Shown: positions 22,901 to 60,180, numbered from the stretch's first letter. The stretch is 64,000 bases of DNA from Bacillota bacterium (GCA_023435305.1 JAEYRV010000027.1:59114-123113); one strand, 5' to 3'. Notes: a model not told the origin generated them from the letters alone. Numbers and translations are program-made.

Positions 22901-25900
22901 CCATCTGGATCGGAGGAGTTCCCGGCGAGGCTAAACCGGTGATCACCAGCTCTACAGAAGGTATCCATCTGACAAGAGTACGCTATCTGATCCTTCATGA
23001 CCTGGAGATCTCAAACACATCTGAAAACGCCATAAACTGCGATGACGGCAGCGAATATAACAATATAGATGCCACCAGGTATTTGATATTCCGGGATCTG
23101 TATATCCATGATGTCAATACCTCGGGAAATGAAGACGGCATCAAATTATCCGGTGTCAACGACTACTATATATTGGACTGCGAAATAACCAGGTGCGGAA
23201 ACAATTACGGAAGCGGCATCGACCATGTCGGATGCCACAACGGCATTATTGCCGGCAATTACCTGCATGACTTTGCCGGCACCGGCATCACATCAAAGGG
23301 CGGCAGTGAAAATATCCATATCCGCGGCAATCGCCTGTTCGATTGCGGAGAAAGAGCGGTAAATATCGGCGGCAGTACCGACTTTGCATTTTTCAGGCCG
23401 CCTCTTTCGACCACGCAGCCAAACTATGAGGCCAAGAACATACATGTATACAGCAATCTGATGCGGGGAAGCATCGCTCCGATAGCTTTTGTAGGAGCAA
23501 CAAGCTGCAGTGCTGTGAACAATACAGTCATATCTCCTGAAAATTGGCTGATACGTATCCTGCAGGAGAGGACATCTACTTCCCAGTATATCTTTGGCCC
23601 ATGTGCAAACAATACGGTCGCCAACAACATTTTTTACTATAATGGTTCAGCCCTCTCCCAGTACGGAACGATAAATGTCGGGAACAATACTTCACCTGCA
23701 ACCTTCACGTTCTCGAACAATCTCTGGTACAACTATAACTCACCTCAGAATTCCACACCGAACCTGCCTGTTACTGAAACCGGTGGGATATTCGGTCAGG
23801 ATCCTCTGTTTACCAATCTGGCTGACAATAATATCAGTCTGCATACCAGCAGTCCGGCAGTGGGAAGGGGAGTCAGCAACGAGACTGCATTATATGATTA
23901 CAATGGGGTTCCTTTCGGCAGTCCCAGGAATATCGGCGCAGTTGCAGGAAGCTCTTCTGCTGTTCAGAACCAGCCGCCTGTGCTTGCTTCGATCGGAGCT
24001 AAAACGGTAAACGAAGGCGCAAACCTCTCCTTTACCATCAATGCCACAGACCGCGACCAAGGAGAAACACTCACTTATTCCATCAGTCCGGTCTCACCTT
24101 CAACACTGCCGGCAGGCATCAGCTTCAACTCCACGACCCGAGTATTCAGCTGGACGCCGGGTGATGAGCAGAGCGGGACCTATACATTGCGCTTTACAGT
24201 CAGTGATGGGAAGCAAATCGATTACGAAGATGTTGTGATCACTGTAATGAATATGTCCAACACTACCCCGCAGGGACGCAATGTCAGGGTAACATCAGCT
24301 GCAGAGCTGCGCAGCGCCATCACCAATGCCCAGAATGGTGACACGATACTCATAGCAAACGGAGATTACACAAACGGAAATCCATTGATACTTAACAATG
24401 TGGATAATATATCTATCCGAAGCGAGTCCAATGATCCAACAAAGGTCACTCTTCGCGGGCGCAGCCGCTTTACAGGAACAGGCTCCTATGACGAGCTGGA
24501 TGACATACTGCGCATAGGTGACTGCAACAATGTCCATATATCTGGACTGACACTGACACAGGCTCACGGATATGGTATCAAGCTGGAGCTCGACGGGAAT
24601 TCGAACCCCAATGCGATTTATATAGAAAACTGCCGATTTATAGATATCGGTACGCGCCACATAAAAGGGACCAAGGACAGCAATTCCTCAACGAAGCGTA
24701 TAACAGGCGGAGCAATACGGAACTGCTATTTTGAGAATACAGTTACACCGCCATCCACAGGCGGTTGGCGCTTCGATGGCAACTATGTCGGAGCAATCGA
24801 TATGATGTCACTGGACGGCTGGGTAATCGAGGATAATGAATTCCGCAACATTCATGGAATAAGCGGAGAAGGACGTTCCGCTATAATGATCTGGCATTAT
24901 TCAGAGGATCTGACAATACAGCGGAACCGCATCATCAACTGCGACAGGGGCATCACTCTGGGACTGCCTGGTTCTGACCTTGGCGGCGGGCGTCATGTGA
25001 AGGATGCCATCGTCCGGAACAATTTCATTCTGCCGGGAAGCAGGGCAGGTTATCAGAGCGACGCCGGAATCGAATGCTCCGATGTGGACAATGTAAAGAT
25101 CTATAATAATACGATATGGCGGCTGAAAAATGACTACAACGGAAGAGGTATCCGGTTCATCCAGAACATCGCCAATACACAGATGGTCAACAATCTGGTC
25201 TACGGCAGGCTTGTCTTTGACAACAATCTTACCATCAGCCGGAATGAAAATAACCTGAGCGGCAATTTATCATCCGGATATGTGGTGAATGTATCCTCCG
25301 GAGACCTTCACCTGACATCGTCTGCAGTCGACGCGCTCAACAAGGGAGTGCTGCTTGCGGAAGTTACGGAAGATATTGACGGAAATGCCCGTGGAACAAC
25401 ACCGGATATCGGTGCGGATGAATATATTGCCCCAAGTGGCGGCAACACTAATCCCGGAGGTGGCACTACTAACCCCGGTGGCGGCAACACCAATCCCGGT
25501 GGCGGCATCATCCTTCCTCCTCCACCGGGCGGCGACAATACCACGGATACTCCTACGGATACCTCCACAACGACTCCGGCTACAACAATTGTTTCTGTCA
25601 CGCAATCAGTGGTTGTATCAGGTGGAACAGCCAAGGCTGCTACCAGCGTGGAACAGCTAAGCAGCGCAATAAATCAGGCGGCACCTGACAACGACGGTGT
25701 CAGAAGTATTGCATTGACACTGCCGGAGGTCAGGCAAGCAGGTACATATCTGCAGGAAATCCCCGCTGAAGCCTTCCGAAAAGGAACAGAAAAGGAGCGA
25801 TATGAAATAATAACTCCTCTCGCCTCCATTTCCATACCCGGCAACATGTTCCCGGCAGGTGAGGTAAACAAGCCGCAGAACATGGGGATATCGGTTTCCT

Positions 25901-26745
25901 ATGCGGATAAGTCGCAGATAAAAAAGAACCTTGCCGAGAAAATAGGAGACAGGCCGGTGCTCCAGATCACTGCATATGCTGATGATAAAAAGATCGAATG
26001 GAATAATAAGAAGGCACCGGTCACGATCACAGTTGATTATACTCCGACAGAAAAAGAGTTGAAAAATCCGGATCACATCGTGGTGTGGTATATTGACGGC
26101 AAAGGAAACATTATTCCGGTAACAAACAGCCGATACGACCCTGTGACTAAAAAGGTGACGTTTAAATTGACCCATTTCAGCGATTATGTGATAGCCTATT
26201 CAGAAAAAACCTACAGTGATATTGGCAAGGCCTACGCAAAGGCTGAGATAGAAGCGCTTGCATCCAAAGGCTTCTACGAATGGATAACAGGCAGCAGCTT
26301 CGCACCCGACAGAAACATAACAAGAGGAGAATTCCTGTACTTGCTGGTTACTCTATTGGATCTGCAAGACACAGTCGAGGAGAATTTCTCGGATGTGAAG
26401 TCAACCGATTTTTATTACGAAGCTGCAGGAATCGCTAAAAAATACGGCATATCCAATGGAATCGGCAGCAACAAGCTGGGAGCAGAACAGAGCATCACAC
26501 GTCAGGATATGTCCACAATGATAGTTCGGGCATTGAATGCAGCAGACAGGAAATATCCTGCAGGCAGTATATCTGATCTGAACCAGTTCAAAGATACCGG
26601 AAAGATATCGTCATATGCAAAGGAAAGCCTGATGGCGCTTGTAAAAGCCGGTATTCTCAAGGGTTCCAATGGTTTACTCGATCCGAAGGGCAGCTTTACG
26701 ATGCAGCAGGCTGCGACAGTCATATGGCGGTTATATAACGAATGA
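19987..26745 (+). CDS. 2252-aa SLH-anchored multi-domain surface enzyme (esterase + two right-handed beta-helix modules + cadherin-like domain)
   Basis: GTG start with GGAGG 8 nt upstream, followed by a signal peptide. An alpha/beta-hydrolase region carries GVSMG (Ser608, nt 21808-21810). The first beta-helix module spans aa ~912-1325 (SPFRSINRALQAAAPGTAIRIHPGTY). A cadherin/He_PIG-like domain spans aa ~1327-1422. The second beta-helix module spans aa ~1430-1815. Three C-terminal SLH motifs occupy aa ~2075-2252. Confidence 0.9.
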   Translation: MKKLKSVLSFFLTASILIALFCPITAAGGAEGPAGPIIADHSNATLAKLEAIPVEWINKAKSDLHIYFNHTSHGSQIPTGMTGLVNFRGSQYAWNSSGSNGALYLADTYSTDLGDADWPNITRNYLNSHPNINVVMWSWCGQVSGSTEAYINTYLNNMSQLEREYPNVKFVYMTGHTDGTGESGSLHRRNEQIRQYCRTNNKILFDFADIESHDPDGNYYMNKAVNDNCDYDSDGNGSRDKNWATVWQNSHTRNVDWFDCDPAHTQALNGNMKAYAAWYLWARLAGWDGGTQGTTQPTTSVSQLTARHYNGQTILTWNEIPEVTAAIPGTMTPQQVKDLRSSFNNITYRIYRSTSPITSVTGLSPIKTVTTLSGWDDEFYGRENNNVSTQNCPRFVVVKDTNNIAAAPVSANTAVSAYNPVAAGTAYYAVTVVRNSVEEKLIGSGNTVMVNETVGQGIPILQKVETQTDYFYTQGISTHYYYTRWESPPNSNVQGMPHDYKVIVPQSYQQGTPAPVYMSFHGWSSSMHSISAWWLNYSKGTIVITSNENPYDWWTGYHEKYGIGERSQQNWSSGVVRPYTQNRLNSFYDWAATKWSFDRSRTISGGVSMGGSGSVMYGIRNPDRIAWVYSWVGVHVPAESPTFRSSYQGVYGELEWQIKYEDGITPAFSFYDDDWYLRNHISDETPFITFSNGKNDGSIGWSQAVKFVNALQDTKRPHIFYWGQGGHNQRTLNPPDINGISSESANPIDIRTNQSLPAFTKCSLDDKPGNGSTNNGDASGQINAYMFWKTEDIVDTQSRWEMTVGAVQTAPAQSCTVSLTPRRLQNFDPTPGEVYRWSNTSLSNNTRIQSGTVTADANGLITIDNLTVNRITSAGGGNRIVIYSDDGTVPANNPPVLAGEISTFEEGKTPTSIIHVATNGNDSTGNGSAASPFRSINRALQAAAPGTAIRIHPGTYSGRINISGLSGTAQAPIWIGGVPGEAKPVITSSTEGIHLTRVRYLILHDLEISNTSENAINCDDGSEYNNIDATRYLIFRDLYIHDVNTSGNEDGIKLSGVNDYYILDCEITRCGNNYGSGIDHVGCHNGIIAGNYLHDFAGTGITSKGGSENIHIRGNRLFDCGERAVNIGGSTDFAFFRPPLSTTQPNYEAKNIHVYSNLMRGSIAPIAFVGATSCSAVNNTVISPENWLIRILQERTSTSQYIFGPCANNTVANNIFYYNGSALSQYGTINVGNNTSPATFTFSNNLWYNYNSPQNSTPNLPVTETGGIFGQDPLFTNLADNNISLHTSSPAVGRGVSNETALYDYNGVPFGSPRNIGAVAGSSSAVQNQPPVLASIGAKTVNEGANLSFTINATDRDQGETLTYSISPVSPSTLPAGISFNSTTRVFSWTPGDEQSGTYTLRFTVSDGKQIDYEDVVITVMNMSNTTPQGRNVRVTSAAELRSAITNAQNGDTILIANGDYTNGNPLILNNVDNISIRSESNDPTKVTLRGRSRFTGTGSYDELDDILRIGDCNNVHISGLTLTQAHGYGIKLELDGNSNPNAIYIENCRFIDIGTRHIKGTKDSNSSTKRITGGAIRNCYFENTVTPPSTGGWRFDGNYVGAIDMMSLDGWVIEDNEFRNIHGISGEGRSAIMIWHYSEDLTIQRNRIINCDRGITLGLPGSDLGGGRHVKDAIVRNNFILPGSRAGYQSDAGIECSDVDNVKIYNNTIWRLKNDYNGRGIRFIQNIANTQMVNNLVYGRLVFDNNLTISRNENNLSGNLSSGYVVNVSSGDLHLTSSAVDALNKGVLLAEVTEDIDGNARGTTPDIGADEYIAPSGGNTNPGGGTTNPGGGNTNPGGGIILPPPPGGDNTTDTPTDTSTTTPATTIVSVTQSVVVSGGTAKAATSVEQLSSAINQAAPDNDGVRSIALTLPEVRQAGTYLQEIPAEAFRKGTEKERYEIITPLASISIPGNMFPAGEVNKPQNMGISVSYADKSQIKKNLAEKIGDRPVLQITAYADDKKIEWNNKKAPVTITVDYTPTEKELKNPDHIVVWYIDGKGNIIPVTNSRYDPVTKKVTFKLTHFSDYVIAYSEKTYSDIGKAYAKAEIEALASKGFYEWITGSSFAPDRNITRGEFLYLLVTLLDLQDTVEENFSDVKSTDFYYEAAGIAKKYGISNGIGSNKLGAEQSITRQDMSTMIVRALNAADRKYPAGSISDLNQFKDTGKISSYAKESLMALVKAGILKGSNGLLDPKGSFTMQQAATVIWRLYNE
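25438..25506 (+). repeat. in-frame 21-nt tandem repeats encoding GGNTNPG x3 linker
   Basis: It encodes GGNTNPGGGTTNPGGGNTNPGGG, followed by a P/T-rich linker inside the giant ORF. Confidence 0.85.
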
Positions 26746-26818: not shown

Positions 26819-27319
26819 TCACTCTGACAGGATGGGTCCGCTTGCAGCAGAGCATCCTTTTTTGAAACTCTCAAACTCACAAATTATATCCGGATGCATT
26901 TCGAGGAACCTGTTCAACATATCGATATTTCTCAATGTATTGCTGCTTATATTATGCTCGATCAGCTCTGTCTCCGTCAGCAAATCGTCATCGGTCCCTA
27001 TGCAGCTTAGGAATTTTTCAATAATATTATGCCTTTTCAGGAGGAATTCGCCTATTTCTTTGCCGCGCCCGGTCAAAAAAATGATTCCGTATTTCTTGTA
27101 GTCCAACAATTCCAGCTCTGTGAGCTTCTGCACCATTTTTGTGGCAGATGAAGGCTTTACGTGCAGCATCTCCGATAAAGTATTGATACGCATGTATCCT
27201 GTCTCATGAATGTTCCTGTAGATCATTTCGAGATAGTCCTCCATTGCAGGGGTCAGCAGCTTATCCTCCTGTGCAAGCAGCTGGTAGCCACGGACCGTAT
27301 GAAAATCATTTTGCTGCAT
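26819..27319 (-). CDS. DtxR/MntR-family metal-dependent transcriptional repressor
   Basis: TPAMEDYLEMIY...SEMLHVKPSSATKMVQKL is an HTH of the DtxR type. It is divergent from feoAB. Confidence 0.8.
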   Translation of the reverse strand: MQQNDFHTVRGYQLLAQEDKLLTPAMEDYLEMIYRNIHETGYMRINTLSEMLHVKPSSATKMVQKLTELELLDYKKYGIIFLTGRGKEIGEFLLKRHNIIEKFLSCIGTDDDLLTETELIEHNISSNTLRNIDMLNRFLEMHPDIICEFESFKKGCSAASGPILSE

Positions 27320-27481
27320 ATTATCACACCTTTATCAGCGAAAAATTTTTTTGCTCATTTACAATATATTCGTAACACTGGTTTTTTATATTTCATATAT
27401 TGGTCTAGGATAAGAATCTTTCTCTCCTCTAAAGCAGGCAATATAAATCATGTACATAACCTGTAAAGGAGGCTTTATTAT

Positions 27482-27721
27482 ATGACCGATCGATATATTC
27501 CCCTTAGTCAGCTGCCCCTGGGCAGAAAGGCAAAGGTCAGGGCACTTACCTCCGACGGGCCTGCCCGCAGAAGGATGCTGGATCTCGGACTGATCTCTGA
27601 TACGCCGGTCGAAGCCCTGCAAAAAAGCCCATCCGGCGATCCTACTGCATATAGCATCCGCGGAGCAGTAATAGCACTGCGCTCGGAGGAAGCAAGTAAA
27701 ATCATGGTTGAGGCTCACTAA
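27482..27721 (+). CDS. feoA: ferrous iron transport protein A
   Basis: A 79-aa FeoA/SH3-like protein (LSQLPLGRKAKVRAL...RRRMLDLGL) with an AAAGGAGG RBS. Confidence 0.9.
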   Translation: MTDRYIPLSQLPLGRKAKVRALTSDGPARRRMLDLGLISDTPVEALQKSPSGDPTAYSIRGAVIALRSEEASKIMVEAH

Positions 27722-27748
27722 ACAGAGCTTGAGCCCAGGAGGATCATA

Positions 27749-29899
27749 ATGGGACTTACCAGCCAATCTACCGGTACCAGTGTGTTGGGCAGTGAACTAA
27801 GAATTGAACGCACATCAGCCAGTGACAGAGTCATCGCCCTCGCAGGAAATCCTAATGTGGGAAAAAGCACGGTTTTCAACAGCTTGACAGGCCTGAACCA
27901 GCACACGGGCAACTGGCCGGGTAAAACTGTCACCAATGCCCAGGGTAAATACAGGCACAAGGACACGAATTTCATTATGGTAGACATCCCCGGTACCTAT
28001 TCCCTTATGGCAAACTCTGCAGAAGAAGAGGTTGCAAGAGATTTTATATGCTTCGGTAAGCCTGACGCTGCAGTTGTGGTAACCGATGCCACCTGCCTGG
28101 AAAGGAATCTGAATCTTGTCCTTCAGACTTTGGAAATCACAGATAAGGTCGTTATATGCGTCAACCTGATCGATGAGGCAAACAGAAAGAATATCTCAAT
28201 AAACTGTGAAAGGCTTGCCCGGCTGCTTGGAGTGCCCGTAGTCCCAACGGACGCCAGAAGAGGAAAGGGTCTTGAAGAACTCATGGATGCTGTTTATGCA
28301 GTCGCCTGTAAGCACACATCTGCAATACCCGTGTGCATTACATATGATGATATCATTGAACAGGCAGTAAAAATAATTCAGCCAAGAATATATGAATTGG
28401 CAGACAGAAAAATCAACAGCCGATGGGCAGCACTGAAGCTATTAGATGGAGATCCTTCACTATTGAGTTCATTGGATAAATATCTGGGCTTTAGTCTTCA
28501 AGAGGATTCTTTACTTGAAGACCTGCTTGGCACCGCTGAAAAACTTCTAGCCGATAATGGTATACAGACTGGCCAAATACGCGACAGGACTGTATCAAGG
28601 CTCGTTCACACAGCTGAGGATATAAGCAGAGATACTGTCACCTTCCATAACAATCAGTACAATCGTATGGACCGGAAGATCGACAGTATCGTTACCTCAA
28701 GGATCCTGGGAATACCAATCATGCTGTGCCTGCTGGCAGCAATCTTCTGGCTGACTATGGCAGGTGCAAACGTCCCATCTGCTATCATAGCAGATTTCCT
28801 TTTCGGTATTGAAACCAAACTGACTGAGTTGTTTATATCGGCGGGATCACCCGAATGGCTCCATGGTGCATTGGTGCTTGGCATGTACAGGACTCTGGCA
28901 TGGGTGATCTCTGTCATGCTGCCTCCCATGGCCATATTCTTCCCTTTGTTTACCCTGCTTGAGGATTTGGGTTACCTGCCCAGGATCGCTTTTAATCTGG
29001 ATAATTTTTTCAAGAAAGCCTGTGCTCACGGCAAGCAGGCTTTGACCATGTGCATGGGCTTTGGCTGCAATGCAGCGGGAGTTATTGGCTGCAGGATCAT
29101 TGAGTCTCCGAGGGAAAGGCTGATCGCCATACTCACAAATGTCTTTGTGCCCTGTAATGGACGTTTTCCTACATTGATCGCTATCGGTACTGTTTTCATA
29201 GGCGGAACCGCGGGCGGCGCCTTCCGGTCATTGACCTCCACCCTTGCCCTCACTGGGATCGTGATTCTGGGGATCCTTATGACTTTATTGGTATCCAGGA
29301 TACTCTCTAAAACCATATTGAAAGGACTACCCTCCTCCTTCACACTGGAGCTGCCTCCATACCGCAAACCGCAAATCGGCAGGATCATTGTCCGCTCGAT
29401 CCTTGACAGAACGCTGTTTGTATTGGGCCGGGCAGTCGCCATCGCAGCACCGGCGGGTCTGGTGATCTGGCTCATGGCAAATATTTCGGTTGGCGAAGTC
29501 AGTCTGTTGACTTACTGTGCAAATTTTCTCGACCCCTTTGCCAAACTGCTGGGACTGGACGGGTATATCCTGATGGCCTTTATCCTGGGCCTGCCTGCCA
29601 ATGAGATCGTCATTCCCATAATCATCATGAGCTACATGGCCTCCGGCTCCATACTCGAACTGAATGAACTTGAGGACTTAAGGCTTCTTCTTGTATCACA
29701 TGGCTGGACCTGGCTGACCGGTGTGTGCGTAATGCTCTTCTCACTCATGCACTTCCCTTGCGGCACGACTTTATGGACGATCCGTAAAGAAACACAAAGT
29801 ATGAAATGGACGCTTGCTTCTTTTGCAATACCAACTGCAGCAGGAATCATAATATGCTTTGTTGTTGCTAATGTGGTACGTCTGCTCGGATTGGTATAG
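27749..29899 (+). CDS. feoB: ferrous iron transport protein B
   Basis: An N-terminal G domain (GNPNVGKST, DIPGTYS) plus a polytopic membrane domain. The RBS is AGGAGG. Confidence 0.95.
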   Translation: MGLTSQSTGTSVLGSELRIERTSASDRVIALAGNPNVGKSTVFNSLTGLNQHTGNWPGKTVTNAQGKYRHKDTNFIMVDIPGTYSLMANSAEEEVARDFICFGKPDAAVVVTDATCLERNLNLVLQTLEITDKVVICVNLIDEANRKNISINCERLARLLGVPVVPTDARRGKGLEELMDAVYAVACKHTSAIPVCITYDDIIEQAVKIIQPRIYELADRKINSRWAALKLLDGDPSLLSSLDKYLGFSLQEDSLLEDLLGTAEKLLADNGIQTGQIRDRTVSRLVHTAEDISRDTVTFHNNQYNRMDRKIDSIVTSRILGIPIMLCLLAAIFWLTMAGANVPSAIIADFLFGIETKLTELFISAGSPEWLHGALVLGMYRTLAWVISVMLPPMAIFFPLFTLLEDLGYLPRIAFNLDNFFKKACAHGKQALTMCMGFGCNAAGVIGCRIIESPRERLIAILTNVFVPCNGRFPTLIAIGTVFIGGTAGGAFRSLTSTLALTGIVILGILMTLLVSRILSKTILKGLPSSFTLELPPYRKPQIGRIIVRSILDRTLFVLGRAVAIAAPAGLVIWLMANISVGEVSLLTYCANFLDPFAKLLGLDGYILMAFILGLPANEIVIPIIIMSYMASGSILELNELEDLRLLLVSHGWTWLTGVCVMLFSLMHFPCGTTLWTIRKETQSMKWTLASFAIPTAAGIIICFVVANVVRLLGLV

Positions 29900-30045: not shown

Positions 30046-31134
30046 ATGAGACAGAAGATTTTATGCTTAATTGTGTTATTTGCGCTAGTACTGGCGTTTA
30101 CAGGCTGTGGCGGCAGCAAAACGGTATCTCCTGAAAATCAGGCTGCCGGATCCGATGTGAAAACAGAAGATAATACAGGGTCAGATAACACCGATACTGC
30201 ATCAACAGGCGAAACAGATATCACCACAGTTGACCAGAATGAATCAGGGGACGTTCAACAGAACGATCAACAAAGCAATGCTGATACTCTTGTCAGTGAA
30301 GACTTTTTAATGCAGATAGAAGACGTCTTTTCCATAACAGGCAGAGGTACGGTAGCAACAGGCCTGATCCTGTCAGGTCAGGTATCTACTGGTGCCGAAG
30401 TCGAGCTGGTCGGTTTGTCCGACAGCCCAAAAAATGTTGTTATCGGCGGTATCGAGTCCTTCAGAAAGATGTTGGACACTGCAATAGCCGGTGATAATGT
30501 CGGCATAATGATAAATGAAATTGACAAAGCTGATGTCCAAAGAGGACAAGTACTGGCTGCCAAAGGTTCGATCTCTGCACACAATACATTTTCAGCAGAT
30601 ATCGTTTTTACAGAAAAGCAGGCTGATGCTTTCTTCAGCCGGGGCGGTTTCGACGGGCTAAGCTATTTCTTTACCACAGATTCAAACACTGTTTACTATT
30701 TTGGACAGACACTGCCTGATGAAAACGGCAAGCTGTCCGTAACAGCACAAATGCTTGCCAAGCTCCCTATGAATGAAGGCACCGAATTTAGAGTCAAACG
30801 CGACGGAAAAACAATAGCTTCAGGTGTAGTGACAGGTGTTGATGTAGAAATCACAGCTGTACCCGGTTTTGAAAATATCAGTATACCCGACAGCGAAACA
30901 CAGTCTGCTGCTGACGACGACGCTACAAATTGCAGTATCAAGCTTTTGAACTATGGTACTCAAAAAGTACAGGTCATCAAGATAATTCGCGAGGTAACCG
31001 GGCTGGATCTGAAGGAAGCCAAAGCCCTTGCTGATTATACACCTTCGATCATCAAAGAAAACATAACTCTGGAAGAAGCCCAGAGCATAAAATCAAAGCT
31101 GGAGGAAGCCGGAGCAGCTGCCGAAATCATATGA
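30046..31134 (+). CDS. lipoprotein fusing EF-Tu domains II-III to a ribosomal L7/L12 C-terminal domain (no G domain)
   Basis: The lipobox is LAFTG|C (Cys21), followed by an acidic linker at aa 22-85. Residues 86-265 align with EF-Tu domains II/III (IEDVFSITGRGTVATG, AGDNVGIMI...VQRGQVLA, TEFRVKRDGKTIASGVVTGV). Residues 296-362 match the L7/L12 CTD (KVQVIKIIREVTGLDLKEAKALAD...KLEEAGAAAEI). Confidence 0.8.
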   Translation: MRQKILCLIVLFALVLAFTGCGGSKTVSPENQAAGSDVKTEDNTGSDNTDTASTGETDITTVDQNESGDVQQNDQQSNADTLVSEDFLMQIEDVFSITGRGTVATGLILSGQVSTGAEVELVGLSDSPKNVVIGGIESFRKMLDTAIAGDNVGIMINEIDKADVQRGQVLAAKGSISAHNTFSADIVFTEKQADAFFSRGGFDGLSYFFTTDSNTVYYFGQTLPDENGKLSVTAQMLAKLPMNEGTEFRVKRDGKTIASGVVTGVDVEITAVPGFENISIPDSETQSAADDDATNCSIKLLNYGTQKVQVIKIIREVTGLDLKEAKALADYTPSIIKENITLEEAQSIKSKLEEAGAAAEII

Positions 31135-32186: not shown

Positions 32187-35100
32187 TCATACCCTTATAT
32201 AATCGATTTCGAAATACTCCTCATTCAATTTCGTATTCGTTGAAAAATTCGTTAGTTGTTTCATGAACTCATCTTCAGAACCAATATGCTTTTTGAGCCT
32301 GAAGCAGGCAGCACAATTCCTCCCGTTCTCTTTTGCGCGGTATAATGCATAATCGGCAATATTTATCATCTGCTCAAGGCTGAAAAGTATAGGATTATCT
32401 GCGTCCAGAGGTATCTGCGCATATCCCAGCGAGCAGGTCTTATATATTGTCTTGTCCTCATAAACCGTCATTGGTGTTTCACTTATCGTTCTCAAAACCT
32501 TTTTCGGAAATTCTCCCAGATATTCCGGCTTTGTATTGTTCAATATGATGAGGAATTCTTCTCCGCCCCATCGGATGACGAAATCACCGTCTCTGACTAT
32601 CTGTTTGAGAAGCTTTGATATCTCTACCAAAACATTATCTCCAGCTGAATGGCCATAAGTATCATTTACCTCTTTGAAATAATCGATGTCGATAAGAAAT
32701 ACTCCAATAACGTTATCTTTTATTGACAGATTCCTCTTCTCAGTATTTTCAACTATCCTTCTTTTACTCTGAACAAATTGAGATATTATGTCATATACGA
32801 ACTCAAAGGTATACCTTCGGTTGTAAAGGTCGGTCAACGGATCATGAAGTGACAGCTCTTTAAGCTTTTCATTGGCACTGTTGAGCTGGATCGTTCTTTC
32901 TCTGACCATATCCTCCATGTTTTCATAAAGCCTGGCATTCTCAATTGAGATCGAAGCCTGCGAAGACATGATTTTCAGTATCTCAAGTCTTTCCGATGTA
33001 AATACGCTGTCGGACAGGTTATTCTCCAGATAAACAACACCCTTCAGGCGATTTTGATAGATGACCGGCATGCACAATAATGATTTGATCTGATTATCCA
33101 TGATATAAGAGTTGTTCTGGTATTTTATGTCCATACAGGCATTGTGGATAACTATAGTTTCCATTGTCCTTGTCACATACTGCACGATTTCAGGACAAAG
33201 GACCCCACTTTCCGCAAAGGGAAGTGACTGCATGACCTGAAGCCTGTTGGAGACCACATCCTGCATCGCCTCTATATAGAACCGGTCGTCGGCTTCATTC
33301 TTCAGCAGCAGGCAGCCCCGCTGAGCGCCTGCGTTTTCAATCATTGTCCTGATCAATATCGTCAATAGCTTGTCGATTTTTATTTCGCTGGAGATGGCCT
33401 GAGTAGATTTCAAAATTGAATTTACATCGATAAATTCACAGAATGAAGCAGAATATGTTCCCTTTATTCCACGTACAGCTTCATCGCTCATAAAATAGTG
33501 AGAATACTGCCTTTCCAGCAGCACTGCCTTCCGATAGGCTCCCCATTGCCTGTAAAGATACTTCGCTTCCCTGATATATGCTTTTCCAATGGTTTCATCT
33601 CCCGCCTCCAGCCAGAACTTCCCGTACGATTCATTGATCAGCGCCCTGTACTGGACGAAATCATTGTTCCCTATGGAGTCCAGCGCCTTTTTAAAGAAAT
33701 CGACGACAGTATCCAGCGGTTCATTATTAATGACCGCAATTTCTGCAGAAAGCAGATAGTATTTATGTGCGAAATTATCCGGGCAATTTTCTGACCAAAT
33801 CCTCAATTTTTGTTGAATATCAACAAGAGATGCTTTTATTTGCGTCTTTTCTTCATCCGATGCTTTTTTCCATTTGTATACGAGTATGAGACCACGGAAC
33901 AAATAGTGATCCGGGATGGGATAATCGGACAGCCCGGCGAAAACTATCCTCTCGGCCAGATCATTCCATCTCCCGGCAGCTTCCATGTTGCCTGTGATAA
34001 TATTCTCATAGGTATTGTATTGATAGAATCTGCACAGGAAGGACAGATCCCTGGTACTTTCTATAGTCGCCAGCATTTCCCGGTCTTCTTTATCGAAGTC
34101 GGTTCCGTCCTCATTTACGGGGACTGTCTGGAGCTTTTTGATAATATAATTGATGATTTGGGTCAAAAACAGCGGCATGGCTGTTTTAGCCCTGCTGAGG
34201 ATCTCTATGGTACTTTCCGCTTCCTGTTTCAGCTCTGTCAGGTTTTTTCCGACCCAAAGCAATAAGTGTACCTTGTGTGACAAAGCGTAGGCAGCATGTT
34301 GGATATCACCTGTTTCAAGGCCTTTGCTGTAGGCCATGTCATAGTATTTGAGGCTTTCAGCATAATGTGCCTTCCAGTAGGAGCAGAATGTGAACCCGAA
34401 GTAAACTGCAGGTTTCAACGATTCGGCATTGAATTTATTGATTATTGAAAATGCCGCCTCACCGAGCCTGTAGCTGGTATTGTAATCCTTGAGCATCGAA
34501 CCCATAACTATACCGCAGTCAGTAAAGCATTTGCTCGACAGCGGCGATGTTCCATATGTACAGGTCATTTCAAACATCATCAGCGAAGCCAGGATATATA
34601 ATGACGGATTGGTCTGAAGTGCCGGAGGGACCACTTGGTAAAGCAGCTGCATGACCATTGCTTTATCCGGAGCGTTCATTACAGGAAGCTCCACAAGCTC
34701 TTCAACAGGTGTTTGTGCCAGAAAGGCCTGCATTTTGCCAATGCCCTCCTGTATTTTCAGGCCGATCTCCTGCTCATTTTCAGGCAGGGATACGCCAAAT
34801 AATGATAAGCTTCGGCGTATTTCATCAATCGCTTCGAAAAGTCTGCCCTGAAACTCAAGAATCTGAACTTTAACATTGGAGACAGCACCCTTGTTGATGT
34901 TGGTAACAGCCAATTGCGACAAATGTCCGCAAAGCTCGTCAGCCTTGACTAATTCTCCGGATAACAAGGCGGAGGCCGCAAGCTCCAATTCCAGCGGGAA
35001 CAGCCTGCCGGGCTCGCTGCTCCATTCTTCCTCCGTCAATTGGTATACCGCGGTTTCAAAATATTTCATGGCCGCTGAAAAAGCGCCTGATTTCTTTGCT

Positions 35101-37400
35101 TTATTACCAGCCATGGCATTCAGATCGGATAATTCGACACGTTCATCCTTCTCATTGACCAGAGCTCTGCCGATATTCAGGTGATTCACCAGGTCAAAAA
35201 GCGAGTCCGCCCTGTTTGTTTCCCGTAAGGTTATTTTGAAAGCCTTCAGATATTCGCGTCCTATCAATAAATGGATTTCCGATTGTTCGTTTTCGGACAT
35301 CAGGGACTGTACAGCCTGCCGGATCCGGTCATGAGCAAAGCAAAGCTTTACATCCAGATCCTGCGAGAGGTCTATGCCCTTCTGAGCTTTTATCAGGCGG
35401 TAATCATTATTTAGGGGCAGAATGATCTCATCTTCAATAGCGATCCATATATCCTTACCCAGCACCTCATACGATTTCTTACTTACTTTCGCGAGCATTG
35501 ACAGATCAAACTGATTTCCGATGCAGGCAGCGAGCTTAAGCACAGTCAGGGTACCTTCCGGGAGTGATTCAAGAGAACTTACCAGAAGCTCCACTACATT
35601 GTCAGTGATTTCGACAGTTTTCATCCTTTCAAGATCATAATCCCATTGTCCTCTTTCCGACCTGAAGGTGAAATATCCCCGGGAATAAAACGTGTTCAGC
35701 AGCTTATCAATGAAAAATGGATTACCCTTTGTCTTGGACAAAACAAGCTCGGTAAGTGGTTCAGTTTCCCTCTGGCTGCTATGCAGCGTATCTGATATCA
35801 GGCGGTTCACAGCATTTGGCTTCAATGGTTCAAGGCTTATCTGACGGCATGGCGTGTCAAATCCCTGATAATTGTTTTCCAGGTCTTTAATAAGCTGCAG
35901 CAGCGGATGTCCATCCCGCACCTCATTGTTCCTGTAAGCCCCTAATAAGTAAACATGCTTTACGTTACCCGCTCCCAGGATATACTTGATCAGTTCCAGT
36001 GTAGAAACATCACTCCAATGAAGATCATCAAGAAAGATCACCAACGGATGCTCTTGTGCTGCAATAGCCCTGACAAATTCAAGAAAGACAAGCTGGAAGC
36101 GATTCTGAGCTTCAAGGGGATTAAGCTCGGACACCCCGGGCTGAGGTCCGATGATCTGTTCCAGCTCGGGAATGATATCCGTAATGACCTGCCCATTGCT
36201 TCCAAGGGCTTCATCCAGGCGTTTTCTCCAATTATCCAGACTGCTTTGTGTTTCGGAAAGCAGTTGCTTTATCAGGTCCCGAATCGCCTGGATCATACCG
36301 TAATATGGAATATTTCGTTCCAGATGGTTACACTTCCCGGATGTATAGTATCCTTTTTTATACATCACGGGCTTGCGTATCTCCTGGATCAATGAGGATT
36401 TTCCGATCCCTGAAAAACCACTGACTAAAAGAAGCCTGCAATGACCTTCCGCAGCTTTTTCAAAGTCTTCGGCCATGATCCGCATCTCATCTTCGCGGCC
36501 GTATAGCTTGTGTGGGATCTCAAATCTGTTGACGATATCTTCCTCACCGGGTTTGAAGTTTCTGACTTCCTTCGGTTTTACAATCATTTGGCGGCAGTAC
36601 TCGAGATCTTTTTTTACTCCAAATGCCGATTGATATCTTTCCTCAACCGTCTTAGAGAGCATTTTCATAATGATTCCCGACAGAGGATCCGGGATCTCGG
36701 GACATATGTCTTTTGGAGGAATTGGTGTTTTAGCTATATGTCCATATACGATCTCCGATTCATCCTCACCTGAGAAAGGCAGCTGACCGGTGAATAACTC
36801 ATAAAGGGTAACTCCCAGTGAATAAATATCGGTTCTGTAATCGACCGGCCTGTTAACTCTGCCGGTTTGTTCAGGAGAAATATAAAACAAGTTTCCTTCC
36901 GGATTGCTCATATCGATACTTTGAGATGATTCTCTGAATAACTCGGCAGAGATGCCAAAATCAATCAATTTGACCTGACCGGTACTCTGATCCCAGATGA
37001 AGTTTGTCGGATTTATGTCCTTATGAATGATGTTCTGTTCATGTATTTGGATCAATGAGTTTGTCATTTGTATCGCCAGGGACAATCCGTCGTAAATACC
37101 TGTCTTAACGGATCCCAACGTCCTGGCAACGGATTCTCCTTCTATATCCTCCATTATGATGGCAAGGCTCTTATTGTACTTTTCGATGGAGTAGGCCTTT
37201 ATTATCCCGTCGCCTGTCAGCTTGTTCATAATTTCATATTCCCGCATAAAGGCGGACAATTCCCTGGATGTCGGGTATTCTCTGTTTAGAAGTTTTACTA
37301 TGACCGGGCATTTATCAGAATCACGGGTTCCGCGATATATAGCTGAATTGTCGCATTTATAGATTTCTTCATTGATATTGAAACCAGTCAGATGTATCAT
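32187..37400 (-). CDS. 1737-aa Ser/Thr protein kinase / STAND (AAA_16) NTPase / helical repeat / GAF / GGDEF diguanylate cyclase
   Basis: Kinase motifs are VIVK, HKDINPTN, DFG and SPE (aa 1-275). Walker A is GFSGIGKSS (aa 328-336) and Walker B is VIFLDDLHW. The GAF domain spans aa ~1323-1492 (nt ~32925-33434). The GGDEF domain spans aa ~1516-1700, with an RDGD I-site and GGEEF at nt 32553-32567. Confidence 0.9.
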   Translation of the reverse strand: MIHLTGFNINEEIYKCDNSAIYRGTRDSDKCPVIVKLLNREYPTSRELSAFMREYEIMNKLTGDGIIKAYSIEKYNKSLAIIMEDIEGESVARTLGSVKTGIYDGLSLAIQMTNSLIQIHEQNIIHKDINPTNFIWDQSTGQVKLIDFGISAELFRESSQSIDMSNPEGNLFYISPEQTGRVNRPVDYRTDIYSLGVTLYELFTGQLPFSGEDESEIVYGHIAKTPIPPKDICPEIPDPLSGIIMKMLSKTVEERYQSAFGVKKDLEYCRQMIVKPKEVRNFKPGEEDIVNRFEIPHKLYGREDEMRIMAEDFEKAAEGHCRLLLVSGFSGIGKSSLIQEIRKPVMYKKGYYTSGKCNHLERNIPYYGMIQAIRDLIKQLLSETQSSLDNWRKRLDEALGSNGQVITDIIPELEQIIGPQPGVSELNPLEAQNRFQLVFLEFVRAIAAQEHPLVIFLDDLHWSDVSTLELIKYILGAGNVKHVYLLGAYRNNEVRDGHPLLQLIKDLENNYQGFDTPCRQISLEPLKPNAVNRLISDTLHSSQRETEPLTELVLSKTKGNPFFIDKLLNTFYSRGYFTFRSERGQWDYDLERMKTVEITDNVVELLVSSLESLPEGTLTVLKLAACIGNQFDLSMLAKVSKKSYEVLGKDIWIAIEDEIILPLNNDYRLIKAQKGIDLSQDLDVKLCFAHDRIRQAVQSLMSENEQSEIHLLIGREYLKAFKITLRETNRADSLFDLVNHLNIGRALVNEKDERVELSDLNAMAGNKAKKSGAFSAAMKYFETAVYQLTEEEWSSEPGRLFPLELELAASALLSGELVKADELCGHLSQLAVTNINKGAVSNVKVQILEFQGRLFEAIDEIRRSLSLFGVSLPENEQEIGLKIQEGIGKMQAFLAQTPVEELVELPVMNAPDKAMVMQLLYQVVPPALQTNPSLYILASLMMFEMTCTYGTSPLSSKCFTDCGIVMGSMLKDYNTSYRLGEAAFSIINKFNAESLKPAVYFGFTFCSYWKAHYAESLKYYDMAYSKGLETGDIQHAAYALSHKVHLLLWVGKNLTELKQEAESTIEILSRAKTAMPLFLTQIINYIIKKLQTVPVNEDGTDFDKEDREMLATIESTRDLSFLCRFYQYNTYENIITGNMEAAGRWNDLAERIVFAGLSDYPIPDHYLFRGLILVYKWKKASDEEKTQIKASLVDIQQKLRIWSENCPDNFAHKYYLLSAEIAVINNEPLDTVVDFFKKALDSIGNNDFVQYRALINESYGKFWLEAGDETIGKAYIREAKYLYRQWGAYRKAVLLERQYSHYFMSDEAVRGIKGTYSASFCEFIDVNSILKSTQAISSEIKIDKLLTILIRTMIENAGAQRGCLLLKNEADDRFYIEAMQDVVSNRLQVMQSLPFAESGVLCPEIVQYVTRTMETIVIHNACMDIKYQNNSYIMDNQIKSLLCMPVIYQNRLKGVVYLENNLSDSVFTSERLEILKIMSSQASISIENARLYENMEDMVRERTIQLNSANEKLKELSLHDPLTDLYNRRYTFEFVYDIISQFVQSKRRIVENTEKRNLSIKDNVIGVFLIDIDYFKEVNDTYGHSAGDNVLVEISKLLKQIVRDGDFVIRWGGEEFLIILNNTKPEYLGEFPKKVLRTISETPMTVYEDKTIYKTCSLGYAQIPLDADNPILFSLEQMINIADYALYRAKENGRNCAACFRLKKHIGSEDEFMKQLTNFSTNTKLNEEYFEIDYIRV

Positions 37401-37641
37401 ATCAGCCTCCCTATTGACTTAAAACGAATCTGGAAAAAAGCATCGCCTCTATAATTATTACCATCATAATTGTATATTGAATCGACAAATGGTTTTTTCA
37501 ACCAGATAATTTAGTATTTTGTCGATAGAATGTCTATCTTGGTGGAGGCTGAATATAACCCCTTTCAATGAAATGGTCCAGATACCTGAATATAAGCTCA
37601 CTGCAAACGGGTGTACAGGATATCTCCTCATTGGCAATCAG

Positions 37642-38115
37642 CTACCTTTTGAAGACAGAGACATCCTGTACATGTTTTTGCTCTTCTTGGATTAGTTCAG
37701 TCAATACTTTATACTTGGTTGTTTTTTCATCATCTTTTGATTGTATCAATATCCCTTGAATGATAATAAGTAATGCCAGATTTTCTTCCTCGAAATTCAA
37801 GCAAAAATAAATCAATTCACTTGTGTCCTTAAATGAAAAATATCTTGTGAAACTAGCAATATCAGATATCAATTTTGATGCTCTGTCATATACACTGAAA
37901 TCAATAACTATATCAGAGTCATCCTTCACCCTTTCCTTTAAATTTTTGTATATCTCTACATGTCGATTTTCTTCGAGCGCAAAAACTCTGGCAATAACCT
38001 TGACCCTTTCTGGAACAGCAGCTTCATTTGCTATTTTCATATACAACTCATATCCTGCCTGTTCAATCGATATGAATTTATCCAGCAGATCAACAACTGT
38101 ATATCCCATAGCCAT
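37642..38115 (-). CDS. ferritin-like (rubrerythrin-type four-helix-bundle, diiron-motif) protein
   Basis: Two ExxH motifs are present (LEENRH and QEEQKH), plus glutamates in the intervening helices (SIEQAGYELY and NFEEEN). Confidence 0.6.
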   Translation of the reverse strand: MAMGYTVVDLLDKFISIEQAGYELYMKIANEAAVPERVKVIARVFALEENRHVEIYKNLKERVKDDSDIVIDFSVYDRASKLISDIASFTRYFSFKDTSELIYFCLNFEEENLALLIIIQGILIQSKDDEKTTKYKVLTELIQEEQKHVQDVSVFKR

Positions 38116-38344: not shown

Positions 38345-38419
38345 TGGAGGCGCCACCCAGACTTGAACTGGGGGATAAGGGTTTTGCAGACCCGTGCCTT
38401 ACCACTTGGCTATGGCGCC
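38345..38419 (-). tRNA. tRNA-Cys (GCA)
   Basis: GGCGCCATAGCCAAGTGGTAAGGCACGGGTCTGCAAAACCCTTATCCCCCAGTTCAAGTCTGGGTGGCGCCTCCA folds as a cloverleaf. The anticodon loop is CTGCAAA and CCA is encoded. Confidence 0.9.
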
Positions 38420-38609
38420 GTATCAATTGCGGCTAGTATATGATAACATGAATAGTTATCAGTGTCAATATGATTTATACTGGGAAAAACGCCTGCTTCG
38501 GGCTTATTCCAGGCTGCACCGGGCACACGGTGACAGCTCATAACAGTTGCCTAAACAGGCGTTTTCCGACTACATTCTATTCCTCTGGATCGCTTGCTCC
38601 TGCTTTAGA

Positions 38610-38954
38610 TCACAAGCTCATCCTGATCTCGTCAAGTCTGCTCTTTGCTTCAGCTGTTCCCTCATGGAAGGAGCTGAGCTTCTCACATGAATAATCGTTA
38701 CAATGTGCGCAGTTTTCAACTTCATTTTTCTCGCCGCATAGACGAATTTCACAGACGTTGCAGTATCCCATATGCCTTCCGTCCTTGCCTACGCAGCCGT
38801 CACAGTTGATGTCTTCTGCCTTGAACTCTCCTCCGAAATCCTTTGACCATTGCTCTGCAACCTTCGCCCTTAATGCATTATCATTATTGACAGTGGCAAC
38901 GTATGCCGGGCAGACACTACAATCCAGTCCACAGTATGCGATATTATTCTGCAT
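38610..38954 (-). CDS. DUF3795-like cysteine-rich protein
   Basis: The 114-aa protein has the pattern CGLDCSVCPAY...CDGC...CNVCEIRLC...CAHC...C. The RBS is GAGGGGGAAG. Confidence 0.65.
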   Translation of the reverse strand: MQNNIAYCGLDCSVCPAYVATVNNDNALRAKVAEQWSKDFGGEFKAEDINCDGCVGKDGRHMGYCNVCEIRLCGEKNEVENCAHCNDYSCEKLSSFHEGTAEAKSRLDEIRMSL

Positions 38955-39032
38955 TTATCTTCCCCCTCGATATGATTTATAAGAATAATATTACATCATA
39001 GGAGTGACAACAGTATGTCATGTTTGAAAAGC

Positions 39033-39055
39033 AAAAAAAGCGCTCTATGCGCTTT
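39033..39055 (-). terminator. intrinsic terminator of the four-tRNA operon
   Basis: The minus strand reads AAAGCGC-ataga-GCGCTTT followed by TTTTT. Confidence 0.7.
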
Positions 39056-39059
39056 ATTT

Positions 39060-39134
39060 TGGAGCGGGATACGAGATTCGGACTCGCGACTTTCACCTTG
39101 GCAAGGTGACACTCTACCACTGAGTTAATCCCGC
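39060..39134 (-). tRNA. tRNA-Gly (GCC)
   Basis: GCGGGATTAACTCAGTGGTAGAGTGTCACCTTGCCAAGGTGAAAGTCGCGAGTCCGAATCTCGTATCCCGCTCCA. The anticodon loop is TTGCCAA. Confidence 0.9.
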
Positions 39135-39197
39135 ATACGTGCCTGGGGACCATACCCGCCGGCACTCATTCATACCGCCGTCAAGCGGAAAAAATGA

Positions 39198-39273
<76 letters not shown>

Positions 39274-39306
39274 ATGCTGCAGATGACATTTCTGGCATCT
39301 GCACAT

Positions 39307-39383
39307 TGGCGACCCGGAAGGGACTCGAACCCTCGACCTCTAGCGTGACAGGCTAGCGTTCTAACCAACTGAACTACCGGGCC
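39307..39383 (-). tRNA. tRNA-Asp (GTC)
   Basis: GGCCCGGTAGTTCAGTTGGTTAGAACGCTAGCCTGTCACGCTAGAGGTCGAGGGTTCGAGTCCCTTCCGGGTCGCCA. The anticodon loop is CTGTCAC. Confidence 0.9.
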
Positions 39384-39433
39384 AAATATCGCCTGCGATA
39401 AACATTCAGGATATGCCTTTCGGCTAAGATCCT

Positions 39434-39509
39434 TGGTGGGCACTATAGGGCTCGAACCTATGACCCCCTGCTTGTAAGGCAGGTGCTCCCCCAGCTGAGC
39501 TAAGCGCCC
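39434..39509 (-). tRNA. tRNA-Val (TAC)
   Basis: GGGCGCTTAGCTCAGCTGGGGGAGCACCTGCCTTACAAGCAGGGGGTCATAGGTTCGAGCCCTATAGTGCCCACCA. The anticodon loop is CTTACAA. Confidence 0.9.
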
Positions 39510-39540
39510 GTATCGTTTATCGCCTTGAGCGACATTAACT

Positions 39541-39569
39541 AGTATACAAAAAAGCCATCCCAAAGTCAA
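39541..39569 (-). promoter_or_regulatory. candidate sigma-A promoter of the tRNA operon
   Basis: The minus strand reads TTGACT, a 17-nt spacer, then TATACT, about 30 nt upstream of tRNA-Val. Confidence 0.55.
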
Positions 39570-39643
39570 TAACATTTTCAATTTTAAATCAAGTAATTTC
39601 TGCGTAATATCTGCCAACCACTATGCAGCCTGCAGTCTTCAAC

Positions 39644-60000: not shown

Positions 60001-60180
60001 AATAAAAAATCCCCGGAATAGGATCCCAGGGACATCAATGGTCAAAAAGCGCGCATCTTCTTCCATCCAGACTGTACTGTCGGCTCCGGGATCACACCGG
60101 GATCTGCTTTCGCTCGCGGGCTAACGGCCATTGGCCGCATTACCGCCGGTAGGGAATCTCACCCTGCCCTGAAGATCATA
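60001..60180 (-). promoter_or_regulatory. FMN (RFN) riboswitch with terminator expression platform
   Basis: The minus strand reads ATCTTCAGGGCAGGGTGAGATTCCCTACCGGCGGTAA...AGCCCGCGAGCG...GATCCCGGTGTGATCCCGGAGCCGACAGTACAGTCTGGATGGAAGAAGAT, which gives the aptamer at ~60055-60180. A hairpin TCCCTGG...CCGGGGA with T6 follows at ~60004-60033. Confidence 0.9.

Follow-up and report, generated by a model that had tools for sequence, protein, structure and literature searches.

What does a bacterial protein do in which a kinase-like domain, a STAND-type NTPase, a long run of helices, a GAF domain and a diguanylate cyclase domain are carried on a single polypeptide, and which of these parts can be expected to work? 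The question is raised by one gene in a 64,000 nucleotide (nt) stretch of DNA from a Bacillota bacterium (GCA_023435305.1 JAEYRV010000027.1:59114-123113), referred to here as the window, in which a complete open reading frame (ORF) of 1737 amino acids (aa) plus stop codon occupies positions 32187..37400. The giant gene, and every feature described within it below, lies on the minus strand. An original prediction, made from the sequence alone, had proposed the kinase / AAA_16-STAND / helical / GAF / GGDEF layout, and this was borne out by matches to Pfam Pkinase, AAA_16, GAF and GGDEF (Pfam domain calls are matches above the curated cut-offs unless stated); every one of the motifs that it quoted, VIVK, HKDINPTN, DFG, SPE, GFSGIGKS, VIFLDDLHW, RDGD and GGEEF, was found in the translation. 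It is very probable that the gene encodes a soluble cytoplasmic diguanylate cyclase, as is predicted here. As the outputs that follow the GAF domain are interchangeable among its relatives, the protein is one output variant of a generic input scaffold made up of kinase-like, COG3899-AAA_16, TPR, GAF and signalling helix (S-helix) elements.

The gene and its predicted cyclase output

The reading frame opens with an ATG, is translated without interruption and is the sole long ORF that an ORF scan detects over its length; a ribosome-binding site, GGGAGG, read directly from the sequence, lies 5 nt 5' of the start codon (37406..37411). The original prediction had itself raised the possibility of two genes joined by a sequencing error. 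That two or more genes have been fused in this way, or by faulty assembly, is extremely improbable: the identical 1737-aa protein is encoded on contigs of three independent assemblies (one is from Logan, and two are ENA metagenome assemblies), full-length homologues fall into more than 110 clusters at 90% identity with 98-100% length coverage and 37-76% identity, and the GC content stays between 0.40 and 0.47 along the gene without an abrupt step. The three assemblies and the full-length homologues together exclude a fusion by sequencing error. An alignment of 114 full-length homologues (37-76% identity), to which all counts out of 114 given below refer, showed conservation to be even over the whole protein (0.5-0.8 per 50-aa window) and, at the level of sequence, all modules are shown to be intact and under purifying selection. 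A scan against NCBIfam returned no full-length equivalog for the giant protein, with the GGDEF domain model alone passing its cut-off, and a sequence search of solved structures found none that spans more than one of its modules.

The GGDEF diguanylate cyclase domain at aa 1518-1695 (32316..32849) was recognised by Pfam GGDEF with an E-value of 1e-36 and by TIGR00254 with 131.9 bits against a cut-off of 37.4. Its signature, GGEEF (aa 1612-1616), lies at nt 32553-32567, with the residues G, G, E, E and F kept in 107-113 of the 114 homologues, and the I-site, RDGD (aa 1603-1606; 32583-32594), stands exactly five residues before it, with R1603 kept in 101 and D1606 in 110. The earlier call of a GAF domain followed by a canonical cyclase, with both motifs in these places, was thus correct. 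The metal, guanine and phosphate ligands D1571, N1579, D1588, K1690 and R1694, which we take to be the equivalents of PleD D327, N335, D344, K442 and R446, are each present in at least 107 of 114. Judged from the alignment, the domain is shown to hold every residue required for catalysis and for product inhibition.

Upstream of the cyclase a GAF domain was identified at aa 1343-1486 (32943..33374) by Pfam (E 2e-13; 51.4 bits against a cut-off of 22.4), and an AlphaFold2 (AF2) model of aa 1290-1737, with a pLDDT of 86.9, gave it the expected beta-sheet and helices. In this model the last GAF helix is 49 residues long (aa 1469-1517) and continues without a break into the GGDEF domain. S-helices have been described as parallel coiled coils of about 40 residues that lie between sensor and catalytic domains and carry 'ERT' in the central heptad (PMC1592074). 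The linker at aa 1487-1519 (32844..32942) is in agreement with this description, being helical in the AF2 model, leading from sensor to catalytic domain and holding a central E1501-R1502-T1503 in which the three residues are conserved in 98, 109 and 110 of 114 respectively. Its length is fixed as well, with 33 residues from the end of the GAF domain to the DPLT at which the GGDEF domain starts in all 76 of the 76 sequences in which both anchors were matched. The nearest folds to aa 1290-1737 among solved structures were the GAF-GGDEF cyclase Dcsbis (4zmu), which gave the best GAF match, and the phytochrome cyclase of Idiomarina (5llw/6et7), with E-values of 2e-19 to 4e-16.

The STAND core and the kinase-like head

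A STAND-type P-loop NTPase core was located at aa 298-483 (35952..36509) by Pfam AAA_16 (E 2e-36). Walker A, G328-S335 (GFSGIGKS; 36396-36419), matches GxxGxGK[ST] and its G328, G331, G333 and K334 are each found in 114 of 114; Walker B, aa 453-459 (36024-36044; VIFLDDLHW occupies 454-462), matches hhhhDD, with D458 in 113 and D459 in 114, and is followed by a near-invariant QW.D motif. A sensor-1-type residue, Arg490, is present in 111 of 114. An AF2 model of aa 270-1340, built with 74 aligned sequences (mean pLDDT 88.8, pTM 0.84), places the strands of the NTPase core where they are expected and shows a five-stranded P-loop core, a helical lid and a winged helix, together spanning aa ~300-700, and then a solenoid. 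The lid and winged-helix region was delimited from the secondary structure of the model at aa 528-700 (35301..35819). Within it, G559, N560 and P561 of the lid motif (GNP, 559-561) are conserved in 114, 110 and 111 of 114, and the winged-helix motif FxHDR (aa 688-692), which forms a strand-helix element in the model, has F688 in 114, H690 in 113 and R692 in 109. From their positions we take Arg490, G559-N-P561 and the His of FxHDR to be the sensor-1, GxP and winged-helix His of STAND proteins. The solenoid, an all-alpha and TPR-like structure of about 30 helices at aa 703-1298 (33507..35294; pLDDT mostly above 90), is the presumed sensor or arm, and it holds a near-threshold match to Pfam TPR_CHK1 at aa 1165-1242 (26.3 against a cut-off of 27 bits).

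In the PDB, Foldseek matched the middle region best to 6mfv, a STAND-TPR protein (E 1e-10, with 837 columns aligned), with further matches to MalT (8bob, E 3.5e-5), to Orc/Cdc6 proteins and to many TPR proteins. With the Pfam match, the conserved Walker motifs and the likeness to 6mfv and MalT in agreement, the AAA_16/STAND assignment made originally stands and, as modelled, the middle region is a STAND NTPase with a TPR sensor arm. The helical repeats had been put at about 950 aa; their helical nature was confirmed but not their extent, as the gap between AAA_16 and GAF is 860 aa, of which the AF2 model assigns some 170 aa to the lid and winged helix and some 600 aa to the solenoid.

The head of the protein, aa 17-257 (36630..37352), is a Hanks-type kinase-like domain (Pfam Pkinase, E 2e-37), and its alignment to PknB is good in the C-lobe only, that of the N-lobe being poor. 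Its motifs are VIVK (with Lys36), HKDINPTN (aa 126-133; 37002..37025), DFG (147-149) and SPE (175-177). The beta-3 Lys, alpha-C Glu, HRD Asp, catalytic-loop Asn and DFG Asp are all present, with K36, E54 and D147 in 114 of 114, D128 in 110 and N133 in 112, and so is the equivalent of APE, in which P176 and E177 are each found in 114 (SPEQ is near-invariant, as are the His126-Lys before D128 and the Phe-Gly after D147). Other features of an active kinase are missing. The catalytic-loop Lys of PknB aligns with Asn130 (IIHKDINPTN against IIHRDVKPAN), and Asn occupies this position in 109 of 114 homologues; the glycine-rich loop, YKCDNSAIYRG, has no internal Gly and is degenerate throughout the superfamily; and the P+1 position, 170, is Asn in the giant protein, where 93 of 114 have Thr and only 5 have Asn. 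No conserved Ser or Thr was found in the activation loop among the 114 homologues. The original prediction was therefore right about the domain, its motifs and the degenerate Gly-rich loop, but the HKDINPTN that it gave as the catalytic loop is not a canonical one, and with both the catalytic-loop Lys and the Gly-rich loop missing protein-kinase activity is not to be assumed. The head most likely still binds ATP, as predicted from its residues, robust PknB-like activity is unlikely, and it is at best an atypical kinase, one that may serve in regulation or provide a weak second output.

Most of the cyanobacterial histidine-kinase relatives retain the catalytic-loop Lys (HKDIKPxN), which in the GGDEF clade is replaced by Asn. 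In a set of 302 kinase heads from the superfamily, drawn from the related proteins P0001-P0270 and the loci L005-L087, this residue co-varies with a position of the Gly-rich loop (aa 130, within 37002-37025, and aa 18, 37347-37349), the sequences not being phylogenetically independent. In this non-independent sample Arg or Lys is found at the Gly-loop position ('G[ST][RK]T') in 63 of about 87 Lys-type heads, and Asn ('SxNS') in 99 of about 200 Asn-type heads. In Hanks kinases the catalytic-loop Lys and the covarying Gly-loop position both point at the gamma-phosphate. Covariation of two phosphate-facing positions would indicate that the phosphate site has been remodelled in a coordinated manner and has not decayed, although this is only a lead.

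Outputs of the scaffold and a proposed mechanism

The extent of the family was assessed by searching with aa 270-1340 against 1.84 billion cluster representatives at 50% identity, which gave 10,062 representatives at E<=1e-30. The best 150 of these (all E<1e-170) mostly match over nearly the whole 1071 residues, being collinear for about 1060 aa, and the match begins about 275 residues into the target, after a kinase-sized head. Local profiles assigned a GGDEF output to 12 of the best 150 and a histidine kinase to 84; the 27 that were unclassified include SpoIIE (14), class III cyclase (8), HATPase_c-type (2) and HD-GYP-type HD_5 (1) outputs. In GTDB species genomes a scan detected at least 218 relatives, chiefly in Nostoc, Microcoleus and other cyanobacteria but also in Thiotrichaceae, Burkholderiaceae, Acidobacteriota and Myxococcota. 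After the GAF domain, 73 of the GTDB loci carry HATPase_c (56), HisKA (41), GGDEF (5), SpoIIE (5), Guanylate_cyc (2) and Sigma54_activat (2), some with extra PAS or REC domains, in a sample that is biased by the presence of RWGGEEFL among its search patterns. The outputs of the scaffold, among which histidine kinases predominate and PP2C, nucleotide cyclase, GGDEF, HD-GYP and sigma-54 ATPase are also found, form a set identical to that reported downstream of S-helices (PMC1592074). The HD_5 output was observed in P0124 (1677 aa, 40% identical over the core), and through it the family includes a predicted variant that degrades cyclic di-GMP (c-di-GMP) beside one that makes it. In a neighbour-joining tree of the scaffold, which has no support values and is indicative only, the Asn-type GGDEF proteins form one clade with a small histidine-kinase subgroup nested within it, and this suggests output swapping. 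Clusters with the full architecture are mainly from Clostridia, Spirochaetes and Fibrobacterota, the names attached to homologues being Acetivibrio clariflavus, Pseudobacteroides cellulosolvens, Clostridia, Bacillota, Spirochaetales, Chitinispirillaceae and metagenome-assembled genomes of Fibrobacter. Judging by these names, close homologues would often reside in anaerobic polysaccharide degraders.

Synthesis of c-di-GMP requires that two GGDEF domains, each loaded with GTP, come together; S-helices transmit signals as parallel dimers, and STAND proteins rest in a closed, ADP-bound state from which engagement of the sensor arm leads to opening, nucleotide exchange and self-association. Given the intact NTPase and cyclase residues and the STAND-TPR fold, a STAND switch that feeds a dimerisation-dependent cyclase is a reasonable hypothesis. 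In such a mechanism the GAF-S-helix-GGDEF part would be a parallel dimer in which the helix sets the relative placement of the two GGDEF half-sites, a coupling that may be likened to the one in cyclases joined to their sensor by a coiled coil, of which the phytochrome-linked cyclase of Idiomarina is an example. The STAND module would be ADP-bound and closed at rest. Triggered by a ligand or partner on the TPR solenoid, and possibly by a small molecule on the GAF domain, it would open, exchange ADP for ATP and self-associate, which would force or re-register the C-terminal dimer and switch on c-di-GMP synthesis until c-di-GMP at the RxxD site caps the output. The kinase-like head would be a regulatory or second-output module acting perhaps through weak auto- or trans-phosphorylation, or else through docking on the NTPase that depends on nucleotide. 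We consider the chances that this composite mechanism, a STAND-gated and helix-coupled diguanylate cyclase, is correct to be about even, and the gating of the cyclase by the STAND module, taken as a single step, is in our judgement just as evenly balanced.

A number of points weigh against this mechanism. Histidine-kinase outputs need a constitutive dimer, and the STAND module may therefore modulate a dimer that already exists and not drive its assembly. The oligomers known from STAND proteins form rings or filaments, and their fit to a two-fold output is not obvious. The AF2 models are monomeric and carry no assembly information, the loss of the catalytic-loop Lys (and, in the giant protein, of the P+1 Thr) allows more than one role for the head, and in the literature no biochemical or structural study was found of the scaffold's NTPase or of a member with GGDEF output.

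The cyclase might instead take its real input from a small molecule bound by the GAF domain, with the kinase-STAND-TPR part being a separate activity or scaffold that gates nothing. GAF, S-helix and GGDEF do make up a complete and well-known sensor-output module, as the nearest folds, Dcsbis (4zmu) and other sensor-cyclases, illustrate, and an S-helix normally connects the output with the sensor domain that stands directly before it (PMC1592074). Work on Chk1 of Candida bears on this in both directions. Deleting the GAF domain as well as the kinase and AAA regions partly restores hyphal formation, which gives the GAF domain a regulatory weight of its own, but deletion of the kinase and AAA regions alone already results in a mucosal avirulence phenotype similar to that of full-gene deletion (PMC9069115). 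Irrespective of the output, most of the best 150 representatives moreover keep kinase, NTPase, TPR and GAF collinear in order and length for about 1060 aa, which argues that the N-terminal 1300 aa and the GAF domain are one input unit, and no NKFDE-type cyclic-nucleotide-binding signature was seen in the GAF domain (aa 1343-1486), which was inspected by eye only and is a weak test. An input confined to the GAF domain is in our view unlikely. Many prokaryotic STAND-TPR proteins are antiviral sensors, and PADLOC models do match the giant protein, as would be expected of an Avs-like conflict or defence sensor in which the STAND-TPR part senses an invader protein and the output is protective. The matches are, however, confined to the generic kinase domain (aa 7-281), the neighbourhoods hold ordinary housekeeping and metabolic genes that vary between genomes, the outputs are classic housekeeping signalling domains and not nucleases, proteases or NADases, and cyanobacteria have many paralogues per genome (PMC2176072). 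A role in defence is thus very improbable. Assignment to a catalogued defence system was rejected, there being neither a full-length match to a PADLOC model nor a defence-island context.

The head is open to more than one reading. Lys36, Glu54, Asp128, Asn133, Asp147 and SPEQ are near-invariant, a conservation that would hardly be expected in the absence of nucleotide and metal chemistry, and the usual K/D/D criterion classes the domain as active; Rio, Bud32 and the aminoglycoside kinases are kinase-fold enzymes that lack the catalytic-loop Lys and yet transfer phosphate. It is nevertheless possible, though we lean towards the contrary, that the N-terminal domain is a non-phosphorylating pseudokinase, a nucleotide- or partner-binding module that acts allosterically or in dimerisation on the STAND switch and leaves c-di-GMP as the sole enzymatic output. 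Such a head is compatible with the STAND-gated mechanism, and it would account for a Gly-rich loop without Gly and an N-lobe that aligns poorly to PknB, for Asn in place of the catalytic-loop Lys in 109 of 114, for the further Asn at P+1 in the giant protein, for an activation loop without conserved Ser or Thr and for the tendency of the Asn state to accompany loss of the basic Gly-loop residue. It would also be in line with the report that about 40% of the CP1 class of kinase domains are formal pseudokinases, all of those fused to COG3899 (PMC12599244). A bolder proposal, which is tentative and which we rate as distinctly unlikely, is that in the GGDEF lineage the changes of catalytic-loop Lys to Asn and of the basic Gly-loop residue to Asn have remodelled the head into a non-phosphorylating sensor of nucleotide or ligand. 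The protein would then integrate nucleotides at three sites, its kinase-like head binding ATP, its STAND core ADP/ATP and its GGDEF domain GTP and c-di-GMP, and through ATP-driven STAND assembly it would respond to a ligand or energy signal with a burst of c-di-GMP. If true, control of a second-messenger cyclase by a STAND switch via a signalling helix would be demonstrated for the first time.

Gene neighbourhood and known relatives

The giant gene is preceded by a gene for a small ferritin-like protein of 157 aa (37642-38115, minus strand), with a gap of 241 nt between them, and a Cof-type HAD phosphatase gene lies 44 nt downstream. A ferritin-like gene ahead of the giant gene on the same strand had been noted originally; the position is correct and two ExxH motifs are present, but the Rubrerythrin match is sub-threshold (19.1 against 22.8 bits) and the gene is not conserved beside homologues. 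The gene probably encodes a small diiron protein of the four-helix-bundle type. At 26819-29899 lie the genes for a metal repressor of DtxR/MntR type (166 aa) and for FeoA-FeoB, with FeoA just upstream of FeoB, and in this genome the giant gene therefore stands between the ferritin-like gene and the FeoAB and repressor genes. Four loci with homologues of 62-76% identity were examined; a ferritin-like gene was absent from all four, and they share no genes with the window. As it does not recur there, the iron-flavoured neighbourhood is taken to be specific to this genome, and a ferritin or iron link as a property of the family was rejected. The related Pkn40 and Pkn41 genes of Anabaena are adjacent, co-transcribed and induced by iron deprivation (PMC2176072), an echo that is treated as coincidence. 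The giant gene appears to be a stand-alone unit without a conserved partner.

An Rfam scan of the whole window found no riboswitch upstream of the giant gene, its only matches being five tRNA genes upstream of the locus (Cys, Gly, Phe, Asp and Val; 38345-39509, minus strand) and a distant FMN riboswitch (60051-60180, minus strand). A 117-aa 'ORF' at 39264-39617 overlaps the Phe, Asp and Val tRNA genes and for this reason is probably spurious. Promoter and terminator scans gave counts no different from those of shuffled sequence. On the plus strand, a 362-aa ORF at 30046-31134 has a lipoprotein-like N-terminus and a low-complexity linker, after which come domain 2 of EF-Tu (E 3e-15) and the C-terminal domain of ribosomal L7/L12 (E 9e-22), a pairing that is odd for an apparently exported protein. 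A 2252-aa secreted protein is encoded on the same strand at 19987-26745, and contains beta-helix/pectate-lyase-like repeats, a He_PIG/Big_9 region, linkers rich in Pro, Gly and Thr and, at its C-terminus, a stretch that faintly matches S-layer-homology (SLH) domains.

Several observations were made at the loci of homologues. Tandem paralogous kinase-STAND-GAF-GGDEF genes occur 152 nt apart in L088 (5-10610) and with one MBL-fold gene between them in L089 (4454-15763); they resemble the adjacent Pkn40/Pkn41 pair, and hetero-oligomers are a possibility. An MBL-fold (Lactamase_B_2/3) gene lies directly downstream of a homologue in both L006 (10399-11106) and L089 (9865-10566), the two being 77% identical to each other, and for a third case, in L004, the identity is only 23%; the recurrence probably reflects shared ancestry rather than a functional link. 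A dockerin-bearing cellulase gene (L089, 417-2075) adjoins a homologue of the giant gene, and the named close homologues come from cellulolytic Acetivibrio, Pseudobacteroides and Fibrobacter, a link with cellulolytic taxa that may be an ecological pattern.

The giant gene is itself an ordinary member of a known, long-catalogued family, and its value lies in that family as a model system. The scaffold is among the largest uncharacterised cytoplasmic input modules of bacteria and fungi, with more than 10,000 clusters at 50% identity matching its core, and among the proteins built on it are Chk1, a virulence factor of Candida, and Mak2 and Mak3, which sense peroxide in fission yeast. As c-di-GMP made by a soluble protein is an easy read-out, a member with GGDEF output is a convenient model in which to ask whether nucleotide-driven STAND switching controls S-helix outputs and whether the atypical kinase head is catalytic. 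The original prediction had held that kinase-AAA-GAF proteins with histidine-kinase outputs are catalogued but that no functional study of them was known to it. They are indeed catalogued and biochemistry is absent, but genetic or expression work exists for Chk1, Mak2/Mak3, HstK and Pkn40/41. No paper was found on the combination of Pkinase, AAA_16 and GGDEF, and in a review that gives a census of the sensory domains of c-di-GMP proteins the terms kinase, STAND and TPR were looked for and none is present (PMC8846402).

Novelty of the architecture cannot be maintained, as it is found in more than 110 clusters at 90% identity and was listed in 2005 by Krupa and Srinivasan, who briefly discussed a 1826-aa protein of Clostridium thermocellum as 'Kinase + 6 TPR repeats + GGDEF' (PMC1262709). 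This protein of Clostridium (Acetivibrio) thermocellum shares the architecture and the length class of the giant protein, and differs from it in coming from another species and in a description that lacks AAA_16 and GAF; its named homologues, from Acetivibrio clariflavus and Pseudobacteroides cellulosolvens, align with the giant protein over 100% of the length at 44-62% identity. The cyanobacterial 'dual protein kinases' (cbSTKIII), among which the expression of HstK varies with nitrogen source (PMC2176072), and the CP1-COG3899 proteins have the same collinear kinase-like, AAA_16, helical, GAF and S-helix elements, with 30-34% identity over about 1060 aa in Nostoc, Microcoleus and others, and share the HKD..P.N loop, the degenerate Gly-rich loop, SPEQ, DDLQW.D and FxHDR. 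In contrast to the giant protein, which has no Pfam match to HisKA or HATPase_c, the cbSTKIII proteins have a HisKA/HATPase output, sometimes with PAS or REC; they mostly keep the Lys of the catalytic loop (HKDIKPxN), and their known biology is confined to expression. In an atlas and a review of 2025 the CP1 class comprises cytosolic kinase domains fused to COG3899, of which the review describes the role as almost unknown (PMC12599244; bioRxiv 10.1101/2025.01.12.632604). The architecture of the giant protein fits the description given there, a cytosolic kinase linked to COG3899 and often to GAF or PAS (PMC12599244), in a comparison that is by description, CP1 itself being defined by a classifier.

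The fungal group X hybrid histidine kinases, Chk1 of Candida albicans and Mak2 and Mak3 of S. pombe, likewise have a Ser/Thr-kinase-like domain, AAA_16, TPR_CHK1-type repeats and a GAF domain before the output (PMC9069115), and genetic work exists on Mak2 and Mak3 (PMC5383687). They are likened to the giant protein by domain content, and differ from it in being eukaryotic and larger (2471 aa in Chk1) with a HisKA-HATPase-REC phosphorelay as output. The middle region has structural counterparts in Pyrococcus PH0952 (6mfv) and MalT (8bob), with which it shares the fold of NTPase, lid, winged helix and TPR arm as well as Walker A and B, sensor-1, GxP and the winged-helix His; identity is only 12-13%, the effector of MalT is a DNA-binding domain, and neither protein has a kinase-like head or a tail of GAF, S-helix and enzyme. 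That tail finds its likeness in Dcsbis of P. aeruginosa (4zmu) and the phytochrome cyclase of Idiomarina, in which a sensor is joined by a long helix to a GGDEF domain with an I-site, at 16-21% identity and without the 1300-aa kinase-STAND-TPR input that precedes it in the giant protein.

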